This document shows, one piece after another, positions 4,823 to 32,000 of a DNA stretch of 32,000 nucleotides. Each line of letters begins with the position of its first letter. Position 1 is the stretch's first letter. The stretch spans positions 1,005,622-1,037,621 of the forward strand of contig CP113000.1 of assembly GCA_026625185.1 (NCBI GenBank), written 5' to 3'. Source of the DNA: Thermodesulfobacteriota bacterium (GTDB lineage: Bacteria > Desulfobacterota > WTBG01 > JAGOGO01). Below the pieces are notes generated by a model. That model was given only the letters and a program-made list of their open reading frames with translations. It made no database searches and was not told the DNA's origin. The position numbers and the translations under genes are program-made.

Positions 4823-5047
4823 AAAGCGATGATGTTGTTGAAAAAACCTTTTGTTGACTTTGCCTCTTCAAAGGATTAAAAAATAAATAATTTATCAATT
4901 CCCAGAAAAAAATAATCGCAGTACAATAATGGGGGCCGCGGAGGAAGGAGATTCCATGAGTGACGAGAATAAAATAAGGCCGAATTACTAAGAATAAAGG
5001 TGATGGGCCTTTTTTACTTTAATGTAAAACCATGATACGAGCTTTGC

Positions 5048-6085
5048 ATGGATAAAAAAGAACAGAATAACTCCCAGTTAGTTTTATATCAGACCGAAGA
5101 CGGCAAGGCACGCATAGAAGTGCGCTTACAGGATGAGACAGTATGGCTCACTCAAAAGATGATGGCTGATCTATTTCAGGTTGCGGTGCCTACTATCAAT
5201 GAGCATATAAAAAATATTTTGGCCGAAGGGGAACTGGTGTCCAAGGCAACTATTAGGAAATTCCTAATAGTTCAAAAAGAAGGCTCTCGGGAGGTATCGC
5301 GTAACGTTGATTTTTTCAACCTCGAAATGATCGTGGCAGTTGGATTTCGTGTCCGGTCACAAAGAGGAACACAGTTTCGTAAATGGGCGATAGATCGTCT
5401 TAATGAGTATATGGTTAAAGGTTTTATCATGGATGACGAACGCCTGAAAGCGGGCATTAATATAGGATCGGATTATTTTGATGAGATGCTGGAACGCATT
5501 CGGGACATCCGTTCCAGCGAGAAGCGGTTTTACCAGAAGATTCGCGATATTTATAAGCTTGCTGTTGATTATGATCCACAAGCGGAAGAAACGCTGGAAT
5601 TTTTTAGTATTGTAAAAAATAAGCTTCATTTCGCTATTTCAGGCAAAACAGCGGCTGAATTGATCTCAGAGCGTGCTGACGCCGCTAAACCCAATATGGG
5701 GCTGAGTTCATGGAGAGGGGCTAAGGTGCGCAGAACAGATGTAACGGTTGCCAAGAATTACCTTAATGAAGCGGAAATGGAAGGATTAAATCGCATTGTC
5801 ACGATGTATCTGGATTTCGCGGAAGATCAGGCAAAACGTCACCGCCAGATTTTCATGCGTGATTGGCGGGCGAAGCTGGATGCTTTTTTAAAATTTAACG
5901 ATCGTGAAATCTTGAAAGATCCCGGCAAGGTGAGCAAGGAGATTGCGGATGCGCTGGCTCTGGAACAGTATGAAATCTTTAACCGCAACAGATTAGCGGT
6001 AGAAGCTGAGCAAGAAGCTATTGCCGATGATAAAGAATTGAAACAGATTCAGAGCAAGATTGAAAAGGGGAAGAGAAAGAAATAA
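5048..6085 (+). CDS. rhuM: RhuM-family protein (virulence/defence-island-associated, DNA-binding-type N-terminus)
   Basis: 345 aa. The N-terminus (LVLYQTEDGKARIEVRLQDETVWLTQKMMADLFQV...INEHIKNILAEGEL) and the central SEKRFYQKIRDIY and MGLSSW motifs match my recollection of the RhuM family (PF13310). Confidence 0.75.
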   Translation: MDKKEQNNSQLVLYQTEDGKARIEVRLQDETVWLTQKMMADLFQVAVPTINEHIKNILAEGELVSKATIRKFLIVQKEGSREVSRNVDFFNLEMIVAVGFRVRSQRGTQFRKWAIDRLNEYMVKGFIMDDERLKAGINIGSDYFDEMLERIRDIRSSEKRFYQKIRDIYKLAVDYDPQAEETLEFFSIVKNKLHFAISGKTAAELISERADAAKPNMGLSSWRGAKVRRTDVTVAKNYLNEAEMEGLNRIVTMYLDFAEDQAKRHRQIFMRDWRAKLDAFLKFNDREILKDPGKVSKEIADALALEQYEIFNRNRLAVEAEQEAIADDKELKQIQSKIEKGKRKK

Positions 6086-6273
6086 TGATAGGCCTTTTTT
6101 TGTTTTGGGACTCAGCTTAGTTGGCGGCTTCGAACCGGCTTATACAGTCTGTAGAAGACCGAAGCTATCAAAACAACAAAATGGTTTAACATTTTAATAT
6201 TATGTGATATTTATAATTTTTCAAGAAAACACGGAAACGTCTTATACAGAAGGCAACCGTCTTTGTTTGCAGT

Positions 6274-6292
6274 ATTATACAGACTGTATAAT
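6274..6292 (+). promoter_or_regulatory. 19-bp perfect palindrome overlapping a TATAAT box (candidate operator/promoter for cassette 1)
   Basis: ATTATACAGACTGTATAAT has 9-bp arms and a 1-nt centre. TATAAT lies at 6287-6292, and TTGTTT lies 18 nt upstream of it. The palindrome ends 5 nt before the proposed cassette boundary. Confidence 0.4.
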
Positions 6293-6297
6293 CTATG

Positions 6298-7136
6298 TTC
6301 GGTATAAAAAAATGGAAAAAAATACTATACAAACTCTTAAAGGTCATTTGTTGGCAGCACGAGCTCTTAAAGACTCGATGGAGAAGTCGCTTGCGTCAAC
6401 TTCAAAGGATAACGTCTGGAAATATGCTAGTTTCAAATCGTATATGTCAACATACCAGAGCATTGTTGCACAAGTATCGACCATAATAAATATCACTGCG
6501 CCTATTGGTGTCTGGGATTTACAAAAAATTCGTGGTTCTCACGATACAACAACCATACAACAACAGGAATTTTTTGAATCAGTTTATGCAAATCTAAACA
6601 TTCTTATCTCATTCATTGAACATTCTATCGATCTTAAGGGCGACGAAATAAGAAGCCTTTGTGATTTTTTTCAGGCAAATCTTAGAAGAGCCGTCTTTGT
6701 AGAACCAGATAAAGAGAAAGAGATACAAGATGTTGTGGAGCAACTGCTGATCGGAAAAGGCTTTGCAAAAGGGATTGACTATGACCGAGAAACCGGCCGC
6801 GTTAAGGTTTCAATTAAGGAAGTAGTTCCTGATTTTATATTGCCGAGATTGTCAATGGCTATAGAGGTCAAGCTGTCAAAAGACAAATCTAAAAGCAAAT
6901 CTATCGTTGACGAGATCAATGCAGATATTCAAGCATACAGCAAGAAATATTCATCTACACTTTTTATCGTTTATGACCTCGGTTCTATTCAAGATGAATT
7001 TGCTTTCAAACATGGCCTTGAAACCATTGATGGGAATATTAGAATAGTCATCGTTAAACATTGAACAATACCGAACAATCGGTTTAACATGGATTGCAAT
7101 TCCGCTGCGCTGCATTGCAACCAGTGAACCGAAACG
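6298..7136 (+). mobile_element. Integron-type gene cassette 1 (PD-(D/E)XK-like ORF plus attC)
   Basis: The left boundary G|TTCGGT (6297-6303) is the exact reverse complement of ACCGAAC (7070-7076), the R'' of the hairpin site after the ORF. The right boundary is G|TT within GTTAGGC (7136-7142). The ORF starts 14 nt inside the boundary. Confidence 0.55.
6312..7064 (+). CDS. Orphan protein with a helical N-terminal domain and a C-terminal PD-(D/E)XK nuclease-like core
   Basis: I use the ATG at 6312 (MEKNTIQ); the 6204 start in the track reads through the promoter/palindrome region. The C-terminal motif is E(VVEQLL)...VVPDFILPRLSMAIEVKL, that is D-x11-E-x-K, with flanking beta-strand-like segments (STLFIVYDLG, IRIVIVKH). 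I recognise no family. Confidence 0.6.
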   Translation: MEKNTIQTLKGHLLAARALKDSMEKSLASTSKDNVWKYASFKSYMSTYQSIVAQVSTIINITAPIGVWDLQKIRGSHDTTTIQQQEFFESVYANLNILISFIEHSIDLKGDEIRSLCDFFQANLRRAVFVEPDKEKEIQDVVEQLLIGKGFAKGIDYDRETGRVKVSIKEVVPDFILPRLSMAIEVKLSKDKSKSKSIVDEINADIQAYSKKYSSTLFIVYDLGSIQDEFAFKHGLETIDGNIRIVIVKH

Positions 7137-7142
7137 TTAGGC
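7070..7142 (+). other. attC-like recombination site 1
   Basis: R'' is ACCGAAC (7070-7076) and R' is GTTAGGC (7136-7142). Between them is an imperfect hairpin: 7080-7084 pairs with 7127-7131, 7088-7092 with 7121-7126 (one bulge), and 7094-7100 with 7114-7120. Bases are bulged on both arms, and 3- to 4-nt unpaired spacers sit next to the R boxes. The site starts 6 nt after the ORF stop. Confidence 0.55.
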
Positions 7143-8124
7143 CGTGACCGAATCTATTCACACCCATAAGGAGATTTCCCGAAATGGACATTCCACGGAT
7201 TTTCAACATCACCGAAAGTGCTCACCGCATCCATAACCCGTTCACACCCGAAAAGCTCGCCACTCTCGGCGCGGCGCTGCGTCTGGAAACGGGGACCCGA
7301 GTGCTCGACCTCGGCAGCGGTTCGGGGGAGATGCTGTGCACCTGGGCACGCGATTACGGAGTCATCGGCACCGGCATCGACATGAGCCAGTTGTTCACCG
7401 AGCAAGCGAAACTCCGCGCTGAAGAACTCGGAGTCGCCAATCAAGTCAAGTTCATCCATGGCGATGCTACCGGCTACGTCTCGGACGACAGGGCCGGTGT
7501 GGCAGCCTGTATCGGTGCTACATGGATCGCTGGGGGAGTCATCGGCACTATCGGGCTTCTGGCGCAGAGCCTCCGCACCGGAGGGATCATCCTCATCGGC
7601 GAGCCATACTGGCGGCAGTTACCGCCGACGGAAGATGTTGCCAAGGGGTGTCTTGCCAACTCAATCTCCGACTTTCTCATGCTTCCAGAACTTCTCGCGT
7701 CTTTCGGCCACCTTGGCTACGACGTCGTTGAAATGGTTCTGGCTGACCAAGACGGCTGGGACAGATACGAGGCGGCCAAATGGCTCACCATGCGCCGATG
7801 GCTTGAAGCCAATCCCGACGACGAGTTCGCGAAAGATGTTCGAGCCAAACTGACCTCGGAACCCGAGCGCTACGCCGCTTACACGCGTGAATACCTGGGC
7901 TGGGGGGTGTTCGCGCTGATGCCGCGGTGATTCGTTGGCGTATCCGGCGGATCGTCAACGGCTGTGCCACGCAACAGCTGGTGGCTCGCCGAGATGTGAT
8001 TGCGCCTGAATTCATTTCTTATGGTCTAGTTATCCGTGCAATCAACAGAAAGGTCTGTCTCAAGCAGGCCTAACATCAATTCATTCAAGCCGACGCCGCT
8101 TCGCGGCGCGGCTTAATTCAGGCG
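7137..8124 (+). mobile_element. Integron-type gene cassette 2 (SAM-methyltransferase plus aadA-type attC), GC-rich
   Basis: It starts with TTAGGC, and its own attC R'' is GCCTAAC (8068-8074), an exact complement of G+TTAGGC as a circular cassette requires. It ends at the G of GTTCCAG (8124). Its composition is visibly much more GC-rich than cassette 1 and the flanking genome. Confidence 0.7.
7184..7930 (+). CDS. Class I SAM-dependent methyltransferase (small-molecule type; no DNA-methyltransferase motifs)
   Basis: Motif I is VLDLGSGSGEM, followed by an acidic post-I residue (GIDMS) and a Rossmann-fold pattern. AAGGAG lies 9 nt upstream of the ATG. I saw no DPPY/NPPY or PCQ motifs. Confidence 0.85.
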   Translation: MDIPRIFNITESAHRIHNPFTPEKLATLGAALRLETGTRVLDLGSGSGEMLCTWARDYGVIGTGIDMSQLFTEQAKLRAEELGVANQVKFIHGDATGYVSDDRAGVAACIGATWIAGGVIGTIGLLAQSLRTGGIILIGEPYWRQLPPTEDVAKGCLANSISDFLMLPELLASFGHLGYDVVEMVLADQDGWDRYEAAKWLTMRRWLEANPDDEFAKDVRAKLTSEPERYAAYTREYLGWGVFALMPR

Positions 8125-15530: not shown

Positions 15531-16634
15531 TTACCATTTAAACTGGGTAGTTGTTCTCCAGGTGGTCATCGCCAGGCGATAATCATCAATATGCTGATGA
15601 GTGAATGTGATACCTGCCTGATCAAAGAACCTTTCCCAGCCGATTCTTTCAATCCACTCCCCAATCCGCTCATATTTTTGAGCGCCTTTTGCGTAAGCTT
15701 CAACTATTTTCTTTATCGCTTTTACCGTAGAAGGCCAGCGCGGGGGCTCATTGGGAAGAAAGGGAATCGCTAACTTGGAAAATTTAGGGGCAGTGCGAGA
15801 ATTAGAGACTTTACCGCCAACCCATAGAGCGATCCCATCACCTTCATAGTCAGCTAAAGGCATCGCGGAACACATGGTGTAACAGTTGCCGCAGAACATG
15901 CAGCGCTCTTCATTAACTACCACGGTTTTTACTTCTTTTCCCTCGATTGTCTTCTTGGCGGGTTTAATTGCTGCGGTAGGACAAGCGGCAATCGCGAGCG
16001 GAACTTCGCAGACTGCATCCAAGCGGTTATCTTCAACCAGAGGCGGCTTCCGGTGAATTCCCAGAATGGAAATATCCGAACAATGGACCGCACCGCACAT
16101 ATTGAGACAACACGCTAATGAAATGCGAACCTGAGCCGGAAGCTTCATTGAGGTAAAATAGTCAAACAGATCATCCATGACTGCTTTAACAACACCAGAG
16201 GCATCAATTGCCGGAGTATGGCAGTGAAGCCATCCTTGGGTATGGACGATATTGGTAATTCCGGCACCCGTTCCACCGATAGGAAATTTATTTCCACGGC
16301 TCTTTAAGTCTTTCTTTAAAGGCTCAAGTTTTGATTTATCGCTTACCAAAAACTCGACGTTATTTCTGGTGGTAAACCGAAGATGACCATCGCAGTACTT
16401 GTCTGCAATGTCACAGATTTCCCGGATATGGTCTACACTCATCACCCTCGTTCCCCCAACCCGAACAGTGTAAAGCTCAGCTCCGGATTCTGCTACGTGG
16501 ACTAAAACCCCGGGCTCAAGAATCTCGTGATATTTCCACTGTCCGTAGTTATCTTTCACAACCGGAGGAAGAAAATCATGATAATCCGGAGGCCCGATGT
16601 CTGTAATTCGATCTTGATATTTCTTTTCAGTCAT
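15531..16634 (-). CDS. dsrB: Dissimilatory sulfite reductase beta subunit
   Basis: 367 aa. Features: [12 protein letters not shown], the siroheme/[4Fe-4S] Cys motifs, a ferredoxin-like insert (CPTAAI...[10 protein letters not shown]), and the C-terminus [17 protein letters not shown] lies 7 nt upstream of the ATG, and the gene starts 13 nt after the dsrA stop. Confidence 0.95.
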
Positions 16635-16647
16635 TTTTATACCTCCT

Positions 16648-17922
16648 CTATGCCTTATGTCTCATACGATATTCTTCAGCACTCCTTTTCCAGCCACCCT
16701 CAACTTCTTCTTCTTTGAAGAAAATGTACGGGTTGTATCGTGGAGTGTTGATCATTCGCGGATCCGGTTGCAGACCCATTGTTTCCAAAAAGTTTCTCAA
16801 ACCCACACGCTGGATTAATTCACCCAGACGCTCCCGGTTTTTGCCGTTTTCATCCCACCATTCCCATAATTTTTCAATAAATTCTTTGAATTCATCATAC
16901 GGTGGTTCCATCTTGATAAACGGAATGACCACACTGGAGAGCTGAGCCCCTTCAAGAATAGGAGCTTTAGCACCAAGCAAAATGGTCGCGCCGGTCTCTT
17001 TTCCGGGTCGCAACGCGCGAGGCATCACATTAATACAATGCATGCATCGGGTACATTCCTTATCATTAATTTTCAATTCTTTGCCATCCCACCACATGCA
17101 GTTGGTAGGACAAAGATCTGTCACCCATTTTTGGATATCGAGCTTTTCTGGACCGGTTCCATGCGCATTGCCATTGGGCGCAAATTCTCCGGCTGCATAG
17201 GCCCTTACTGCTTCCGGGTCAATGCGAATATTGTCCTTCCAGGTTCCTATAATTGAACAATCCGCCCGCGCAATTGCGGCCACGCAGTCGTTGGGACATG
17301 CAGAACATTTAATCTTAAATTTGTAGGGCCAGGCCGGGCGGTGCAACTCATCCTGGAAGGTCCGGGTAAGATTAAAAATAATATCCTGGCTATCAATACA
17401 TGCCCACTCGCATCGAGACATTCCCAGACAGGCCGCGGGAGTACGGAGTGCTGAACCCGAACCGCCGATGTCCATATTCGCTTGATGGGTTAAATCCTGA
17501 AAACAGGGCTCCAGCTTATCCGTGGTGGTTCCCAAAAGAATAATATCCCCTGTGGAACCATGCATATTGGTTATGCCGCTTCCATGCTCTTCCCAAATAT
17601 CACAAACTTTCCGGAGCCGTTCAGAAGTATAGTATTTTCCCGTGGGCTGGTTTACCCGCATGGTGTGGAAGTGAGCAATATTAGGAAAAAGATCAGGTCG
17701 GTCGCAGTAACGACCAATTACCCCGCCGCCATATCCCATAACACCCACAATACCGCCATGCTTCCAATGGCCTTCCTTTTCTTTATATGAAAGCTCCATG
17801 AGACCCAAAAGGTCGTCGCAAGCAGGCTTCTTTTCTGCCATTTTTTTAATATCCGTGACAAAGCTTGGCCACGGTCCCTTCTCGAGTTCATCGAGCAGGG
17901 GGGTTTTATGTTTCAATGCCAT
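16648..17922 (-). CDS. dsrA: Dissimilatory sulfite reductase alpha subunit
   Basis: The N-terminus [22 protein letters not shown] is canonical for DsrA. A ferredoxin domain is present (CPNDCVAA...[12 protein letters not shown]). The second ATG (17922) has AGGAGG 8 nt upstream, so the 17928 start is disfavoured. Confidence 0.95.
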
Positions 17923-18208
17923 TAACATTACCTCCTGATATCAATCTTAAAAAGTTATTAAAACTTCTCTCTGGACCTAAGTAATGTAACCCACCTCCTT
18001 CCCCTGCAGTTACAAACTTGATTTTGCTGATAAGAATATTTTTAGACTTTTTATATTAGTTTTAAAGACATATAAACAATAGCGAGGCATTAAAGATAAA
18101 AATAACATAAGAAAGTTGAGGTTCAATGATAAAAATCATTCAATTTGATGACAAAAATCAAAATTTTGCATTTATCATTACTTGCTTATCCTCCTTCAAT
18201 TTTTTGAT

Positions 18209-26390: not shown

Positions 26391-26716
26391 ATGAAAAAAT
26401 CCATAATTATTTCTATAATTTTGGGACTTTGTCTAATTTTTAGCACAGTCTCTTTTTTATTTTTAAATCCCAGAGCAACTTCTGCTACAGAGGCAAAGAC
26501 CGCAACTAAACCAGGAGCGGTAAAATTAATAAATATCAATACGGCTTCGGCAGAGGACCTTACGAGCCTCAAAGGCATCGGAGAAAAAACCGCCTAGGCG
26601 ATCATTGAATATCGAGAGAAAAATGGTGCTTTTAAGGCCATTGAAGATATCAAAACGTCAAAGGAATAGGTGACAAGAAGTTTGAGGTATTTAAAAGCAG
26701 TATCTGTGTGAAGTAG
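26391..26716 (+). pseudogene. comEA: comEA (helix-hairpin-helix DNA receptor) disrupted by an in-frame TAG and a 1-nt frameshift
   Basis: A signal anchor is followed by INTASAEDLTSLKGIGEKTA, then TAG (26595-26597) where ComEA proteins have Q. The text continues AIIEYREKNGAFKAIEDIK, and then the conserved NVKGIGDKKFEVFKSSICVK* is only readable after a frame change at the A-run near 26652-26655. Confidence 0.7.
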
Positions 26717-26745
26717 TAACCTGATTCCCCTTCGCCATGATCCCA

Positions 26746-26779
26746 AGAAAGGCCTTTTTAAAAGGCCTTTCTTTTTTTT
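26746..26779 (+). terminator. Rho-independent terminator after comEA
   Basis: AGAAAGGCC (26746-26754) pairs with GGCCTTTCT (26764-26772), followed by a T-run to 26779. Confidence 0.75.
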
Positions 26780-27006
26780 CTCCAGAAACAAAAAGTTCAG
26801 CAGGTGACATTTTTCACATACGTAATTTTGGAGAAGCCGTAAAAAGGCGAAAATCAGACGGCACAGCGGTAGGGACACGTTGCCACGTGTCCTTTCACTA
26901 AATGCAAGGTGCGCCTGTCTTTGAGCTTCGCTCGGAGGCCTGTCCCCGTTCAACGCACAGGGTCAATTTCACCCTCACCCTGCCAGCTCCAGACTCTTCG
27001 TGCCCG

Positions 27007-27108
27007 ATTCAGAAAGTGAGAAGTTAAGAAATTATGAGGTTAGGAAGCTCACATTTTCTTAACTTCGCATCTTCCCAACTTCCAAGTTTTACGAAGCCGT
27101 CAATTTTT
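27007..27108 (+). repeat. 102-bp direct repeat, copy A (contains a 12-bp perfect inverted repeat)
   Basis: It matches 30882-30983 with 7 mismatches in 102 by my hand alignment. The internal hairpin pairs GAAGTTAAGAAA (27020-27031) with TTTCTTAACTTC (27055-27066) around a 23-nt loop. Confidence 0.9.
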
Positions 27109-27117
27109 GTTGCTTTA

Positions 27118-27145
27118 GAACGCTTTTTTGAATAAAATTCTCTCA
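27118..27145 (+). promoter_or_regulatory. ECF-sigma-like promoter motif upstream of nrfH
   Basis: GAAC-N17-TCTCTCA lies 85 nt upstream of the nrfH ATG. The same architecture (GAAC-N17-TGTCTCA) follows repeat copy B. Confidence 0.4.
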
Positions 27146-27229
27146 TAACAATTTTTGAAAGGTACCACGTAATGGTACGAAGAGGAAACCCAAATAGTTT
27201 TTCCATGATGAAAATAACTTAAAAAACGC

Positions 27230-27703
27230 ATGAACTGGAAAAACCTATTTAACACCGATAAGCGCACACTGTTCGGATTAGGCACGCTGTGCGGAATTAT
27301 TATCGTGGTCGTAATCGCGTCCCTGTATACCGCTTCGGGAAGCCCTTACCTTTGCGGCTCCTGTCACAGCATGGGACTGGTGCATAAACGCTGGCAGGTA
27401 TCTCCTCACAAGCAGTTTTCCTGTATTGATTGTCATCTTCCCGCAACGCATCTGCCCGAAAAACTGGCTTATAAAAGTCGCGCCGGCTCTCACGACCTCA
27501 TTAACGAGACCATGCGCATCTATCCCGCGGCCATCCTGTTTTCCGAAGAAGGCCGGGGAATCGTAAACGGTAATTGCGTGCGTTGTCACTTTTCCACCAT
27601 AGAAAAAACCCCGATGGCGGGAATAACGGTTGACTGCACCAGGTGCCATCGCTACCTGGTGCATGGCCGGGGTCTTGAAAAAGGAGGGATTAGCGTTGAA
27701 TAA
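27230..27703 (+). CDS. nrfH: NrfH, membrane-anchored tetraheme cytochrome c quinol dehydrogenase (NapC/NirT family)
   Basis: An N-terminal TM helix and four CxxCH motifs (CGSCH, CIDCH, CVRCH, CTRCH). It lies immediately upstream of nrfA. Confidence 0.9.
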   Translation: MNWKNLFNTDKRTLFGLGTLCGIIIVVVIASLYTASGSPYLCGSCHSMGLVHKRWQVSPHKQFSCIDCHLPATHLPEKLAYKSRAGSHDLINETMRIYPAAILFSEEGRGIVNGNCVRCHFSTIEKTPMAGITVDCTRCHRYLVHGRGLEKGGISVE

Positions 27704-28973
27704 AAAAAGAGTGCTCTTCGTCATTCTTATCGGATTGTTTTTAATGGGCGGGGCAATCCTCGTGCGGGTCGTGATCCTGAAACCTGCCTCTACCATACAG
27801 CTTGCCGGCATTCCCCCGGACGAATATGATCCCGCGGTCTGGGGCCGGCACTATCCCAGGGAGTACCAATCATATCTTAAAAACAAGGAAATGGCTCCTT
27901 CTCCCACCGGATTCGGAGGAAGTGAAAAGGTCCAGAAATCGGTACAGGAACCGGAGATTCTGACCAACTTCAAAGGGATGCCCTTCAACGTCGACTACTC
28001 CGAGGACCGCGGCCATCCTTACGCGCTCGATGATCTCAAAAACAGTAAACGCATAAACGAGACCACGGCCGGTTCCTGCATGACCTGCAAGACCCCGAAC
28101 CTCATCGATGTGTTTAAAGAAAAGGGCTGGGGCTACGCCAAGACGCCGCTTAAAGACTTGCTGCCCAAACTCACACAGCCGATCGCCTGTGCCAACTGTC
28201 ACGATCCCGCCACCATGAACCTGAGGGTGATCAATCCCGCGTTTATCGAGGCCGTGAATCGCCGGGGAATCGACCTCACCAAAGCCACCCGTGAAGAAAT
28301 GCGCGGCTACGTCTGCGGCCAGTGCCATGTGGAATACTATTTTGTGCCCGCCGACAAAAAAGTCATTTTCCCCTGGGCCAACGGCTTAAAGCCCGACGAG
28401 ATGTATACCTACTACGCGCAAAAACCCAATGCTTTTGAGAAAGACTGGCAGCACCCCGACTCTCAGGCTTTGATGCTCAAAGCACAGCACCCGGACTATG
28501 AAACCTGGAGCACCGGAGTTCACGCCAAGTCGGGAGTTTCCTGTCCGGATTGCCACATGCCCTTCACACGCGAAGACGGGGTGAAATACACCTCTCACTG
28601 GGTTACCAGCCCCATGAAGAACATCAAGCAGTCCTGCCGGCCCTGCCACACCCAATCGGAAGACTGGCTCCTCGACCGGGTGAAGACCACACAGAACAAT
28701 GTCTGGCAACTCCAGCGTATTGCCGGCCAGACCATTGCCAAAGCCCACGGAGTGATCGGACAGGCCGCTCAGGTCAAGGATTCCGACAAAAAGAAACTCG
28801 ACCAATCGCGGGAGCTTATCCGCAAGGCCCAGTGGTTCTGGGACATCGTGGCCGCGGAAAACAGCATGGGCTTCCACAACCCTTCACAGGTGGAAAATAC
28901 TCTGGGGCAGTCTATCGATCTGGCACATCAGGCGATAACCGCAGCGAACGATGCAGCACACTCAAATTTCTGA
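27696..28973 (+). CDS. nrfA: NrfA, pentaheme cytochrome c nitrite reductase (ammonia-forming)
   Basis: The diagnostic CxxCK active-site heme motif is CMTCK, and there are four CxxCH motifs (CANCH, CGQCH, CPDCH, CRPCH). I chose the TTG start at 27696 because AAGGAGGG lies 7 nt upstream. The 27630 start in the track would overlap nrfH by 74 nt. Confidence 0.9.
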   Translation: MNKKRVLFVILIGLFLMGGAILVRVVILKPASTIQLAGIPPDEYDPAVWGRHYPREYQSYLKNKEMAPSPTGFGGSEKVQKSVQEPEILTNFKGMPFNVDYSEDRGHPYALDDLKNSKRINETTAGSCMTCKTPNLIDVFKEKGWGYAKTPLKDLLPKLTQPIACANCHDPATMNLRVINPAFIEAVNRRGIDLTKATREEMRGYVCGQCHVEYYFVPADKKVIFPWANGLKPDEMYTYYAQKPNAFEKDWQHPDSQALMLKAQHPDYETWSTGVHAKSGVSCPDCHMPFTREDGVKYTSHWVTSPMKNIKQSCRPCHTQSEDWLLDRVKTTQNNVWQLQRIAGQTIAKAHGVIGQAAQVKDSDKKKLDQSRELIRKAQWFWDIVAAENSMGFHNPSQVENTLGQSIDLAHQAITAANDAAHSNF

Positions 28974-29013
28974 AAATTGTTTTCAAAAATCGCGGGGAAC
29001 AAAGTATTCAGGT

Positions 29014-29625
29014 ATGATGTCTAATAAATCAGATCACGTTTACGATGATGACGTCACCTTTATATCTCGATGCCAAAAGGGCGACACCGAAGCCTTTGGG
29101 GTCCTGGTGGAAAGGTATCAGAAAAAAATGTTCAACATTGCCTTTCGGATGACCGGAGATTACGAGGCAGCAGGCGAGGTTGTCCAGGAAGCCTTTCTTT
29201 CCGCCTTTCGGGCGATCAAAACGTTTCGTGGCGAAGCGACCTTTGCCACCTGGCTGACCACCATTGTGCTCAACCACGCAAAAAACAGCCTCAAAAAGAC
29301 AAGGGTCATCTCCCACTATGAACCGATATCTCTTGACCAAGCCGCTGATCCCCATAATGAAACTCCCCGTTTTGATCCTCCGGCAGACAGTATGTCGGCA
29401 ATGGAACGGCTTGAAAAAAAAGATATCCAGGAAGTGGTCCAGGAAGCTATCAATTCTCTCGATACGGAATTTCGGGAGATACTTATTCTGAAAGACATTC
29501 AGGAGGTTTCTTACGAGGAGATCACTGCTATCCTGAAGATCCCTGATGGCACCGTGAAATCTAGAATTTTCCGGGCGCGTGAAGCCTTGAGAGAACGGTT
29601 AAAAAGAAAGTTAGGAGATTGGTGA
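29014..29625 (+). CDS. ECF (sigma-70 family, RpoE-like) sigma factor
   Basis: Region 2 reads GDTEAFGVLVERYQKKMFNIAFRMTGDYEAAGEVVQEAFLSAF. Region 4 reads FREILILKDIQEVSYEEITAILKIPDGTVKSRIFRAREALR. I trimmed the start to the MMSNK ATG. Confidence 0.9.
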   Translation: MMSNKSDHVYDDDVTFISRCQKGDTEAFGVLVERYQKKMFNIAFRMTGDYEAAGEVVQEAFLSAFRAIKTFRGEATFATWLTTIVLNHAKNSLKKTRVISHYEPISLDQAADPHNETPRFDPPADSMSAMERLEKKDIQEVVQEAINSLDTEFREILILKDIQEVSYEEITAILKIPDGTVKSRIFRAREALRERLKRKLGDW

Positions 29626-30698
29626 TGAACTGCCAGGAAATCCAAAAAAACTTGTCTTCCTACGTTGATGGAGTTTTGTCCTCCGAAGAAAAGAAGCTCG
29701 TGGAAGGACATCTGACATCCTGCGGCCAGTGCAGTGCCGCGCTTGCGGATTTGCGGAAGGCAAAAGACCTTCTCCGAAATCTCGATGAGGTGGAGCCGCC
29801 GCCATGGCTTACGGCAAAAATCATGGCCCGGGTGGGAGAAGAAAAAGAGCAACGGGCGAGTTTCTTAAAAAAACTCTTCTTTCCTTTTTATATAAAAGTC
29901 CCCATTCAGGCTCTCACTGTTATTCTGGTTGGCGTAATAGTATTTCAGGTTTACCGGATGGTAGAACCGGAGAAGAAAGTCACTCACGCGCCCTCTCCGC
30001 CTTCACTTTTAACGGAGCAAGAAGCGCTGAAAAAGGAAACACCCTCAGGTGCTGCGAAGTCATCTGAAGCGCTATCTCCACAGCCACAGCGAAACACGGC
30101 CGCGAGCAAAATCGCCGAGAAAAAGGATGAGAACGCTCAGCCAATGTCTTATGCGCAGGGTAGGGAGGATAAAAAGCCCGGTAATGTACCGGTCCCAGCT
30201 GGGGAAAATGCTCCGGTAATGGCTGAGGCAACGCCGGAAGACAAAAGTAAAAAAGAAGCAGCAGGACTGGCAAACGTACCTGTGCAAACCGAGGCCTCCC
30301 GACAACGATTCCCTGAAGGGCAGCCGGAAGACTCGGAAAAAGCTGCCGTTTTTGCTGATAAAAAAGGAGTGGAAGAAGAACCGGAAACAACGGTTCTCAA
30401 GGATAAAATAACCAGGCAGCGTGCCTGCGCGCAACTCATGCCTTGTATTATCGTAAGCGTCTCCGATACTGCCGCGGCTAAAAAGGTGGCTGAGGATATG
30501 GTAAAACAACTCGACGGAAAAGCGATCGAGACCATCACCCAGGGAACCAGGGAAATTATAATTGCCGAACTGCCTTCCGAAAATATCAACGAGCTCTCCG
30601 AAAAACTTCAAACTCTGGGCGAGATAAAAACCAATCCAGAGCTTTCCAAACTCCCGGAAGAAACCGTTCGTGTCCATATAGAAATTACCCCCCGATAA
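29625..30698 (+). CDS. Anti-sigma factor (zf-HC2 type) with one TM helix and a large low-complexity extracytoplasmic domain
   Basis: Its ATG overlaps the sigma stop codon (TGATG). The N-terminal zinc motif is H-x3-C-x2-C (HLTSCGQCS). The TM segment is VPIQALTVILVGVIVFQVY. A Glu/Lys/Ala/Pro-rich region is followed by a structured C-terminus. Confidence 0.8.
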   Translation: MNCQEIQKNLSSYVDGVLSSEEKKLVEGHLTSCGQCSAALADLRKAKDLLRNLDEVEPPPWLTAKIMARVGEEKEQRASFLKKLFFPFYIKVPIQALTVILVGVIVFQVYRMVEPEKKVTHAPSPPSLLTEQEALKKETPSGAAKSSEALSPQPQRNTAASKIAEKKDENAQPMSYAQGREDKKPGNVPVPAGENAPVMAEATPEDKSKKEAAGLANVPVQTEASRQRFPEGQPEDSEKAAVFADKKGVEEEPETTVLKDKITRQRACAQLMPCIIVSVSDTAAAKKVAEDMVKQLDGKAIETITQGTREIIIAELPSENINELSEKLQTLGEIKTNPELSKLPEETVRVHIEITPR

Positions 30699-30881
30699 CC
30701 GTCCCCGAATCCGGGAAATCAAAAATTCCTTTCCCGCATTCGTGTCGTTTTCCTCTCATCTTAACTTTCCCCACATGAAAAGTGAAGTGTAAAACGTAAG
30801 ATGTTAAAACACTTCGCGCTTCACGCGCTCACGTTTTACGAAATATAATCTTCGCTCCCTGCTCTAGGCTCGTCGTACCCA

Positions 30882-30983
30882 ATTCAGAAAGTGAGAAGTT
30901 AAGAAATTATGAGGTTAGGGAGCTCCCATTTTCTTAACTTCGCATCTTCCTAACTTCCAATTTTTACGATGTCATCAATTTTT
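30882..30983 (+). repeat. 102-bp direct repeat, copy B
   Basis: It matches 27007-27108. The hairpin arms (30895-30906 and 30930-30941) are identical to copy A, while 2 of the 7 substitutions fall in the loop. Confidence 0.9.
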
Positions 30984-30986
30984 CGG

Positions 30987-31014
30987 GAACATTTTTAAAA
31001 CCTCCTGTGTCTCA
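30987..31014 (+). promoter_or_regulatory. ECF-sigma-like promoter motif upstream of the VIT-domain gene
   Basis: GGGAAC-N17-TGTCTCA resembles the GGAAC...GTCT class of ECF promoters. It lies 170 nt upstream of the ATG at 31184. Confidence 0.45.
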
Positions 31015-31183
31015 AGGGACAGAAACCCTAATAATACCAAGTTGCATTCAAAAGCAGATCGAGGCGACGACGAGGAATCGACACAGGTGTACATTTTAGT
31101 GCGTCGAGGAGTGTGACGAGGAGATAACAAAGATATGCAAATGAAAAAGACTTGGTATAAACCCAAAACCAAGGAGGTAAGAC

Positions 31184-32000
31184 ATGAAACAACTAAAACG
31201 ATTCTTATTATCTTTAATCATTACGGCGTTTATTCTACCCTTCGGCGCTCTCGCCCGCGCCCAGGAAAACGAAAATTCCGATCGTACTCTTTCTCCCTAT
31301 TTCTTTGTCAAAAGTGACGACGCCGGTACGGACCAGCTTCCGCTCAAAGCCACTTCAGCGAAGGTAAATATCGCCGGGGTTATCGCTGACGTGCTGGTCA
31401 CGCAGGTTTATAAAAATGATGGGAAAAAATCTTTGGAGGCGATCTACATCTTTCCTGCGTCCACTAGGGCCGCGGTATACGGAATGACAATGACCATCGG
31501 TGAGCGGGTGATTGCGGCAAAAATCGATAAACGCGATGCCGCCCGCAAACAGTACGAACAGGCGCGGGATTCGGGCAGAAGCGCGTCTCTGCTGGAACAG
31601 CAACGGCCCAATGTCTTCCAGATGAACGTTGCCAACATCATGCCCGGCGATGAAATCAAAGTCGAGCTTACTTATACCGAATTACTTGTTCCCACTGACG
31701 GCATATATGAATTTGTTTATCCGATGGTGGTCGGGCCGCGCTACACGAATCAATCGAAGGATAACGCTCCCGCTTCGGAGCATTGGGTGCAAAACCCCTA
31801 CCAGCATCAGGGCAACGCCCCGAGCTATTTCTTTGATATCAACGCGACAGTCTCTGCCGGGCTTCCCATTCAGGAACTGACCTGCTCTTCCCACAAAATA
31901 AAAGCAAAATATGACGGTCTTTCAATCGCCCGCATCGCGCTGGACCCTGCGGAAACAAATGGCGGCAACCGCGACTATATTCTGCGGTACCGTCTTGCCG
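31184..32000 (+). CDS. Secreted VIT (vault inter-alpha-trypsin) domain protein, probably VIT plus vWA (N-terminal 272 aa; runs off the right window edge)
   Basis: Absent from the ORF track because it has no stop in the window. AAGGAGG lies 6 nt upstream of the ATG. A signal peptide (MKQLKRFLLSLIITAFILPFGALA) is followed by the VIT pattern LSPYFFV...D.LPLK.T...V.I.GVIADV.V.Q.Y.N.G....EAIYIFP.S..AAVYGM.M.IG.R.I.A.I..R..AR..YE.A...G.SASLLEQQRPNVFQMNVANI.PG. Confidence 0.8.
   Translation, partial: MKQLKRFLLSLIITAFILPFGALARAQENENSDRTLSPYFFVKSDDAGTDQLPLKATSAKVNIAGVIADVLVTQVYKNDGKKSLEAIYIFPASTRAAVYGMTMTIGERVIAAKIDKRDAARKQYEQARDSGRSASLLEQQRPNVFQMNVANIMPGDEIKVELTYTELLVPTDGIYEFVYPMVVGPRYTNQSKDNAPASEHWVQNPYQHQGNAPSYFFDINATVSAGLPIQELTCSSHKIKAKYDGLSIARIALDPAETNGGNRDYILRYRLA

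Follow-up and report, generated by a model that had tools for sequence, protein, structure and literature searches.

Why should two stretches of similar non-coding DNA bracket exactly four genes, nrfH, nrfA and the genes for an extracytoplasmic function (ECF) sigma factor and an anti-sigma factor, in the genome of a Thermodesulfobacteriota bacterium? The arrangement, confirmed here by domain matches to the four enclosed genes, could mark a mobile gene set, a jointly regulated one, or neither. We have analysed a stretch of 32,000 nt from contig CP113000.1, referred to throughout as the window, together with related contigs that are labelled by L-numbers; the coordinates of the features are collected in Table 1. 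The reading we favour, to which we give about an even chance of being right, is a lineage-specific local duplication, by which a non-coding, hairpin-forming block of spacer DNA came to lie, through microhomology, just ahead of two promoters.

The repeat pair

A repeat search identified a single two-copy family in direct orientation, 129 nt in length and 89% identical (115/129), with a spacing of 3875 nt. BLAST alignments of copy A with copy B gave E values of 1e-38 to 1e-44. The first-pass annotation had described direct repeats with seven mismatches in 102 nt, and a recount of this core gives exactly seven (95/102 identical), at positions 27045, 27051, 27076, 27086, 27095, 27097 and 27099. 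The weaker similarity that had been noticed upstream of the core proves to be 27 nt more with seven further mismatches, giving the 129-nt unit. No third copy was found in 37.7 kb of the source genome, made up of the window and 5.7 kb added downstream by contig L001 and containing about 25 intergenic regions. There was no match to the repeat in viral contigs (by scanning) or plasmids (by BLAST), and a scan of genome contigs with the pattern AAGTTAAGAAAN{15,30}TTTCTTAACTT returned 36 hairpins, all unrelated and none of them from the source genome.

Within each copy lies the perfect 12-bp inverted repeat around a 23-nt loop that had been reported earlier (GAAGTTAAGAAA / TTTCTTAACTTC), and this extends to imperfect arms of 27–30 nt, forming an A+T-rich palindrome of 63 nt. 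The core is composed of two arrays of short units. The first has about five octamers in tandem, of the form TTnnGAAG (TTCAGAAA GTGAGAAG TTAAGAAA TTATGAGG TTAGGAAG), and the second of about five octamers of the inverse type (TTCTTAAC TTCGCATC TTCCCAAC TTCCAAGT TTTACGAA). Identity at a lag of 8 nt is 0.51–0.52 (z = 5.6), the corresponding z at a lag of 16 is 6, and no other 48-nt segments of the 37.7 kb are as strongly 8-periodic as those of copies A and B. The octamer periodicity leaves the arms free to pair in alternative registers, and RNAalifold favours a register-shifted pairing. In the fold test that had been proposed, either strand folds better than its shuffled counterparts, with z-scores of −2.5 to −3.6.

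The repeats had been judged not to be protein-coding, and this is borne out. There are stop codons in all six frames, the minus-strand open reading frame (ORF) is degenerate, with a tryptophan codon in copy A and a stop in copy B, and a 60-residue ORF over copy A matches only its own cluster among 5.8 billion proteins. This cluster is found on six contigs, the longest of 1.6 Mb; NrfH and the anti-sigma protein of the source genome are found on a contig of 3.3 Mb.

Insertion of nrfHA at an ancestral sigma factor locus

Relatives of the anti-sigma protein were found in metagenomes at 61–71% identity. In contigs L041 and L042, the order of features is (pfkB), a gene for an HHH-domain protein, a terminator, sigma, anti-sigma and the VIT-vWA gene, with neither nrfHA nor the repeat. 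Contigs L040, L043 and L173 keep the sigma, anti-sigma and VIT genes, again without nrfHA or the repeat, and have other genes or insertions upstream of sigma. A perfect sigma70 promoter, TTGACA-N17-TATAAT, precedes the sigma gene in L040–L042. Comparison of these sequences indicates that the ancestral order was pfkB, HHH gene, terminator, sigma70 promoter, sigma, anti-sigma, ECF promoter and VIT-vWA gene.

The homology between the window and L040–L042 stops at about 26779, after the HHH terminator, and resumes at about 28985, 11 nt past the nrfA stop codon. The gap shows that nrfHA was inserted here, displacing the sigma70 promoter. The limits of the insertion, about 26780/26815 on the left and 28975–28985 on the right, coincide with the repeat at neither end. 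Among relatives of NrfH (72–90% identity), those encoded on L167 and L169 are informative: the HHH gene, terminator and nrfH occur at the same site and with the same promoter block, and copy A is missing, there being only 65–85 nt where the window has about 290 nt (block X plus copy A). The alignments thus indicate that nrfHA came in together with a promoter of its own, at a point between the HHH terminator and the sigma gene, before repeat A was there. As the sigma70 promoter was replaced and the gap from nrfA to sigma is now only 43 nt, the sigma and anti-sigma genes are probably co-transcribed with nrfHA from the nrfH promoter.

The nearest named relatives of NrfH are from Smithellaceae, and this points to an organism of the Syntrophales type. 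Three assemblies, from JGI, ENA and Logan (L170, L171 and L172), encode a 90%-identical NrfH and all start at the base equivalent to about 27101 in the window, where repeat A ends. An assembly break at a repeat is one possible cause, a fall in coverage at a hairpin another. This shared start does not, however, depend on k as a break at a repeat should, the assemblies may share reads, and we have not used it as evidence.

Growth and proposed duplication of the anti-sigma/VIT spacer

Eight spacers between the anti-sigma and VIT genes were aligned, and they occur in three states. The short state is found in L040–L043 and L173. The intermediate state, in L044 and L045, has block Z and both flanks of the repeat, minus the hairpin of about 60 nt. 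The full state is that of the window and of L046, a contig that has nrfA-sigma and, in the position orthologous to repeat B, a copy of that repeat. Taken together, the aligned spacers indicate growth from the short form, through a form with block Z and the repeat flanks, to one with the octamer hairpin. In the window's species, the same 129-nt block is also present immediately before the nrfH promoter. The copy in L046 has the A base at six sites and the B base at eight, so that both copies in the window have diverged from a common form.

Copy A would have been derived from the B locus. The last 15–25 nt of the repeat (GCCGTCAATTTTT in A) resemble native B-locus sequence in L042 and L044 (GCCGAAAAAATTTTTT and GCCGTAAAATTTT), which suggests copying from B to A. 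Moreover, the AATTTTT tract at the right end of the repeat is native just upstream of the −35 element at both loci in relatives without the repeat. The right duplication junction accordingly lies in microhomology, and the abutment of both copies on a −35 element is explained without function. A microhomology-mediated template switch or an illegitimate recombination over 3.9 kb is suggested as the event. The block itself most likely originated through slippage and inverted duplication of short units, and would have no dedicated function. Block Z has three heptads more in L044 and L045 than in the window, and for L044 this is what arrays prone to slippage should show. Block Z was also considered as a homologue of the repeat and rejected: only a 13-nt motif, CAnGTTTTACGAA, is in common, and such a match was seen in 15 of 1000 shuffles.

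As a consequence, the proposed duplication would give two promoters an identical block, prone to hairpin formation, at about −40 to −170. Homologous recombination across the 129-bp direct repeat could also, on occasion, remove the 3.9-kb nrfHA-sigma-anti-sigma segment or double it. The locus resembles known segmental, microhomology-mediated duplications in having two direct copies a few kilobases apart, boundaries that ignore the limits of any element, and a junction in the shared AATTTTT. It differs in that the left junction and the origin of block X are not accounted for, and in that the direction of copying is deduced.

Several observations weigh against a local duplication. The matches that suggest B-to-A copying are short and of low complexity (GCCGT..AATTTTT), and relatives have comparable strings at their A locus. 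The divergence of A from B is uneven, with 7/27 mismatches in the left flank versus 7/102 in the core (Fisher p = 0.01), a pattern compatible with constraint or gene conversion on the core. The window and L046 agree at 92–99% in the spacer of block Z and repeat, against about 80–90% in most of the coding DNA beside it; short stretches of the VIT gene, however, likewise reach 97–99%. The uneven divergence and the high spacer identity are both compatible with constraint, with gene conversion or with recent exchange. A deletion may have removed the hairpin from L044, which would then not have lacked it originally. The copy count covers 37.7 kb of the source genome. Finally, a 63-nt stretch of L162, an unrelated metagenome contig, is 81–86% identical to the hairpin and follows a response-regulator gene, and hairpins of inverted octamers occur at about eight loci among the metagenome matches listed (L093, L162, L143, L133, L064, L056, L052 and L101); the sequences of L162 and the other loci hint at a wider family.

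The anti-sigma linker in the same region (29904–30450) is hypervariable, with 37–68% nucleotide identity to L046. Set beside the 92–99% identity of the spacer, this makes the locus look like a mosaic between related populations.

The locus provides a small case study of how bacterial spacers evolve. An ECF sigma operon had its sigma70 promoter displaced when a nitrite-reductase operon was inserted, hairpin-forming arrays of short units grew in the neighbouring spacer, and one of these would then have been copied before the nrfH promoter. The locus also carries a caution, in that direct repeats around a tidy set of genes are no evidence that the set is mobile.

Comparison with dispersed repeat families

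The alternative that survives best, though we consider it rather unlikely, is that the copies belong to a dispersed family of small, non-autonomous hairpin elements, of the MITE (miniature inverted-repeat transposable element) or repetitive extragenic palindromic (REP) kind, which inserted independently before nrfH and before the VIT gene. Both copies are indeed insertions relative to sister genomes. At the empty sites, the repeat is absent from L040–L043, L173, L167 and L169, but these sites differ from the window by more than the unit, and L044 has the flanks without the hairpin. Short direct repeats flank both copies, an 8-bp repeat GTCAATTT at 26962 and 27099 around copy A, and TTTTACGA at 30834 and 30962 around copy B; their sequences and offsets, however, differ between the copies. 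Hairpins of the same style lie in other gene contexts, as in L162, or between the genes of an operon, as between ptb and buk in L133. Against these points, the 37.7 kb yielded no further copy in its intergenic regions, and two copies 3.9 kb apart would be unlikely for a family that is both of low copy number and dispersed. No transposase, integrase, recombinase or RAYT-like domain was found among the window ORFs, and the peptide encoded by the repeat occurs in one protein cluster only.

A different sequence in the same spacer bears on this alternative. At 31034–31158, in the 5' untranslated region of the VIT-vWA gene and between its ECF promoter and ribosome-binding site, there is an element of about 125 nt whose terminal inverted repeats measure 9 bp (ATACCAAGT / ACTTGGTAT). 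The window, L040, L041 and L043 have it, it is missing in L042, L044, L046 and L173, and a second copy, inverted and 80% identical, occupies positions 87–197 of L040. This appears to be a true MITE-like element and a different one from the 129-nt repeat. Its polymorphism and its second copy in L040 indicate that small mobile elements are active in the lineage, which lends the dispersed-family explanation some support.

The repeat belongs among the known small intergenic hairpin repeats, but does not show the full set of features that define MITEs, REPs or attC sites. Like the REP and BIME sequences of enterobacteria and the REPINs of Pseudomonas, it is extragenic, non-coding and hairpin-forming, and lies between operon genes or beside promoters. 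REPs are G+C-rich sequences of 20–40 nt that occur tens to hundreds of times and are associated with RAYT, a Y1 transposase. The window's hairpin, in contrast, measures about 63 nt, is A+T-rich, occurs twice in 37.7 kb and has no RAYT among the window ORFs; it is thus neither a short G+C-rich palindrome nor seen in high copy number. With bacterial MITEs (Correia/CREE of Neisseria, ERIC/IRU, RUP and BOX), the repeat shares a length of about 100–150 bp, insertion polymorphism, a position adjacent to promoters and the ability to fold when transcribed. MITEs are dispersed, end in inverted repeats and are flanked by a defined duplication of the target site. In the window's unit the inverted repeat is internal, with about 30 nt on each side of it within the 129 nt, and the ends of the unit are not complementary, so that terminal inverted repeats are lacking; the flanking repeats differ, and a sister genome has the flanks but no hairpin.

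Repeats built of short units offer a further comparison. STRRs are short tandemly repeated heptamers of cyanobacteria. The TAACTGA repeats of Beggiatoaceae, Cyanobacteria and Bacteroidetes are intergenic, direct arrays of one unit (PMC4679880). The window resembles both in having intergenic arrays of 7–8-nt units near gene starts, with a variable number of units (three more heptads of block Z in L044). It is unlike them in that two mutually inverted arrays of degenerate octamers form a hairpin, which has been duplicated as part of a 129-nt block. An integron attC site or cassette was also considered. The attC consensus is RYYYAAC ... GTTRRRY, in that order; the order in the repeat is reversed (GTTAAGA, then TCTTAAC), four genes lie between the sites and there is no integrase in the window, and this candidate was rejected.

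A possible role in regulation

We consider it unlikely that the repeat is a cis-regulatory module, such as an operator for a regulator that acts as a dimer or tetramer, or else a structured upstream element, exerting joint control over nrfHA-sigma-anti-sigma and VIT-vWA. The position of the copies is the most suggestive point. Copy A ends at 27108, 2 nt before the −35 element TTGCTT (27110), copy B ends at 30983, 3 nt before GGAAC (30986), and the centre of the hairpin is about 100 nt upstream of the predicted start at both promoters, these starts being placed near 27145 and 31021. This adjacency is nevertheless accounted for by the T-tract microhomology described above. The first-pass annotation had offered a duplicated regulatory leader as one meaning of the repeats; the equivalent positions before two transcription units stand, but the copies lie upstream of −35 and are not transcribed leaders, and the two promoters are of different sigma types, the ECF promoter itself not having been copied.

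In favour of such a role, the core is more conserved than the left flank, the spacer is more conserved between the window and L046 than most neighbouring coding DNA, and the arms are identical in all three copies (A, B and L046). However, the block is missing in close relatives that retain the same promoters, which makes it dispensable, and there is no adjacent regulator gene. Double changes were found at 0 of 29 pairs, the comparison being confined to three copies with little variation. The identity of the arms, together with substitutions in the loop, had been taken as a sign of selection on the structure. This does not hold up statistically, since chance alone gives P = 0.14 for 0 of 7 mismatches in 24 arm positions and P = 0.50 for two or more in the loop. 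Should the repeat bind a regulator after all, it would exemplify the expansion of a regulon through copied promoter-upstream DNA.

Octamer-style hairpins in other genomes

Metagenomes were scanned with the degenerate 20-mer TTTCTTAACTTCKCAYYTTC, equivalent to 2.5 such octamers, and gave at least 120 loci, mostly chance matches, the known contigs of the source organism not being among those listed. The loci with inverted-octamer hairpins listed above have folding energies of −49 to −78 kcal/mol, and their arms consist of tandem units of the GAGAAGGT / TAAGAAGT type followed by the complements. They are intergenic, in contigs of 41–58% G+C with unrelated neighbours, and none of them has an Rfam match. 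The search pattern was itself built of octamers. The matches establish that octamer-style hairpins exist elsewhere, and do not establish that the repeat is mobile. It is doubtful, in our estimation, that the hairpin core is an instance of an undescribed and widespread class of intergenic hairpins, in which purine-rich octamers of the GAAGnTnn type are followed by their complement. Were this so, hairpins of the class might act generally, on DNA or on RNA, for instance as a register-tolerant structure affecting promoters or mRNA ends, and duplication of such a hairpin would have re-wired the expression of nrfHA and VIT. A true family of octamer-array hairpins would also be a new type among the intergenic repeats catalogued in bacteria.

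A long palindromic repeat, GGGGACGTTGGTTnAGAAGTTAAGAAACTGC...GCAGTTTCTTAACTTCTnAACCAACGTCCCC, was met on three contigs of a Myxococcota metagenome-assembled genome, CAMYLJ01 (L007 3433–3469, L012 4683–4726 and L026 4988–5026). This is a REP-like family that shares the 12-nt arm sequence by happenstance.

RNA-level and module explanations

That the repeat is a small RNA, or a structured 5' or 3' untranslated element acting at the RNA level, appears very unlikely. Its folding scores are suggestive, copy B lies in the 3' region of the operon, and block Z contains a sigma70-like promoter (TTCACG-N18-TATAAT, 30820–30849), conserved in L044 and L046, whose predicted start is the left edge of repeat B. 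Copy A, however, lies behind a strong terminator, and the sequence in it that corresponds to the −10 box is degenerate. No terminator-like end was seen in the repeat, and the three copies show no covariation. Searching the window with Rfam 15 gave no match at the gathering score, and with E up to 5 allowed, the region 26600–31300 gave only chance-level matches (E of about 1 or more).

The remaining proposal, made in the first-pass annotation, that the repeats are the recombination ends of an nrfHA-sigma-anti-sigma module acquired as a unit or excised as a circle, is contradicted as an origin and hardly credible: direct repeats do bracket exactly four genes, and their longest identical run, 38 bp, would permit rare RecA-dependent deletion or duplication of the 3.9-kb segment, but sigma, anti-sigma and VIT form a conserved ancestral arrangement without repeats (L040–L043 and L173), nrfHA occurs at the same site without repeat A (L167 and L169), the window has no integrase or recombinase gene, the segment has the GC content and context of the core chromosome, and no deletion form joining HHH, repeat and VIT was among the contigs met. 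The first-pass annotation had proposed looking for genomes with a single copy and no nrfHA; the relatives without nrfHA (L040–L043 and L173) lack the repeat as well. One Logan contig, L002, has ends at 27015 and 30911; these are exactly where 31-mers turn unique, given the mismatches at 27045 and 30881, and the ends thus reflect an assembly break caused by the repeat and not a circle.

Genes and promoters at the locus

Table 1. Features of the repeat locus in the window
Feature	Coordinates	Strand	Remarks
HHH-gene intrinsic terminator	26745..26773	+	homology with nrfHA-less relatives stops just past it
Block X	26815..26979	+	about 165 nt, lineage-specific, left of copy A; absent from L167 and L169; no similarity found in compared sequences
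Repeat copy A	26980..27108	+	core 27007–27108; weaker similarity may extend to about 26944–26962
Hairpin of copy A	27012..27074	+	perfect 12-bp arms 27020–27031 / 27055–27066; imperfect 30-nt arms; tandem octamers
nrfH promoter	27110..27138	+	sigma70-like, TTGCTT-N17-TAAAAT; conserved in L167, L169 and L170; variant TTGCGT / TAAGAT in L168
nrfH	27230..27703	+	TIGR03153, PF03264
nrfA	27663..28973	+	PF02335; 436-residue form as called on L001
ECF sigma factor gene	29017..29625	+	RpoE/SigW-like; Sigma70_r2 and r4_2; best scores against RpoE/SigW models
Anti-sigma factor gene	29625..30698	+	zf-HC2 and DUF2275, hypervariable linker
Block Z	30768..30850	+	7-nt periodic, just left of copy B; in L044, L045 and L046; not in L040–L043 or L173
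Repeat copy B	30855..30983	+	core 30882–30983
Hairpin of copy B	30887..30949	+	perfect arms 30895–30906 / 30930–30941
VIT-vWA promoter (predicted)	30986..31014	+	RpoE/ECF type, GGAAC-N19-TCTCA; nearly invariant in seven related loci
VIT-vWA gene	31184..32000	+	extends past the window end; 766 residues on L001

The sequence at 30986–31014 is the predicted ECF promoter of the VIT-vWA gene and suits the neighbouring RpoE-like sigma factor. It is the sole match to a GGAAC-type ECF promoter in the window, where 0.12 are expected by chance, and in all eight aligned spacers GGGAAC-N18-GTCTCAA stands directly downstream of the spacer. It combines GGAAC, a separation of about 16–19 nt and a GTCT/TCTCA-like −10 element with the adjoining sigma/anti-sigma pair. 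For nrfH, an ECF-like promoter, GAAC-N18-CTCTCA at about 27123–27150, was considered and rejected, GAAC being shifted or absent in L167, L169 and L170 and TTGCnT-N17-TAAAAT being conserved. Sigma54 promoters, dif/Xer sites, FNR/CRP boxes and attC sites were inspected by eye, and their defining motifs are missing. Block Z consists of GTRAARn units followed by CRCTTCR units, and is among the most 7-periodic segments in the 37.7 kb.

The HHH-domain (ComEA-like) gene at 26391–26720 is a pseudogene here, with CAG changed to TAG at codon 69 (26595–26597) and a frameshift thereafter; an intact protein of 108 residues is encoded in L041, L042 and L167. The window ORFs are those of core genes, among them ftsK, lolA, a MiaB/RimO-like radical-SAM gene, dksA, selB and a dsrAB-like pair. 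The members of this last pair are adjacent NIR_SIR-domain genes (dsrAB-like sulfite reductase subunits) at 15531–17928, beside selB and dksA. Elsewhere in the window, at 5048–7930, DNA of low G+C content (0.36–0.41 over 5001–7000) has genes for two proteins, one of the RhuM family and one with a restriction endonuclease domain of the DpnII/MboI type. They are followed by a methyltransferase gene (7184–7930), in DNA of higher G+C content (0.54–0.60), and the region may be a small restriction-modification or defence islet.

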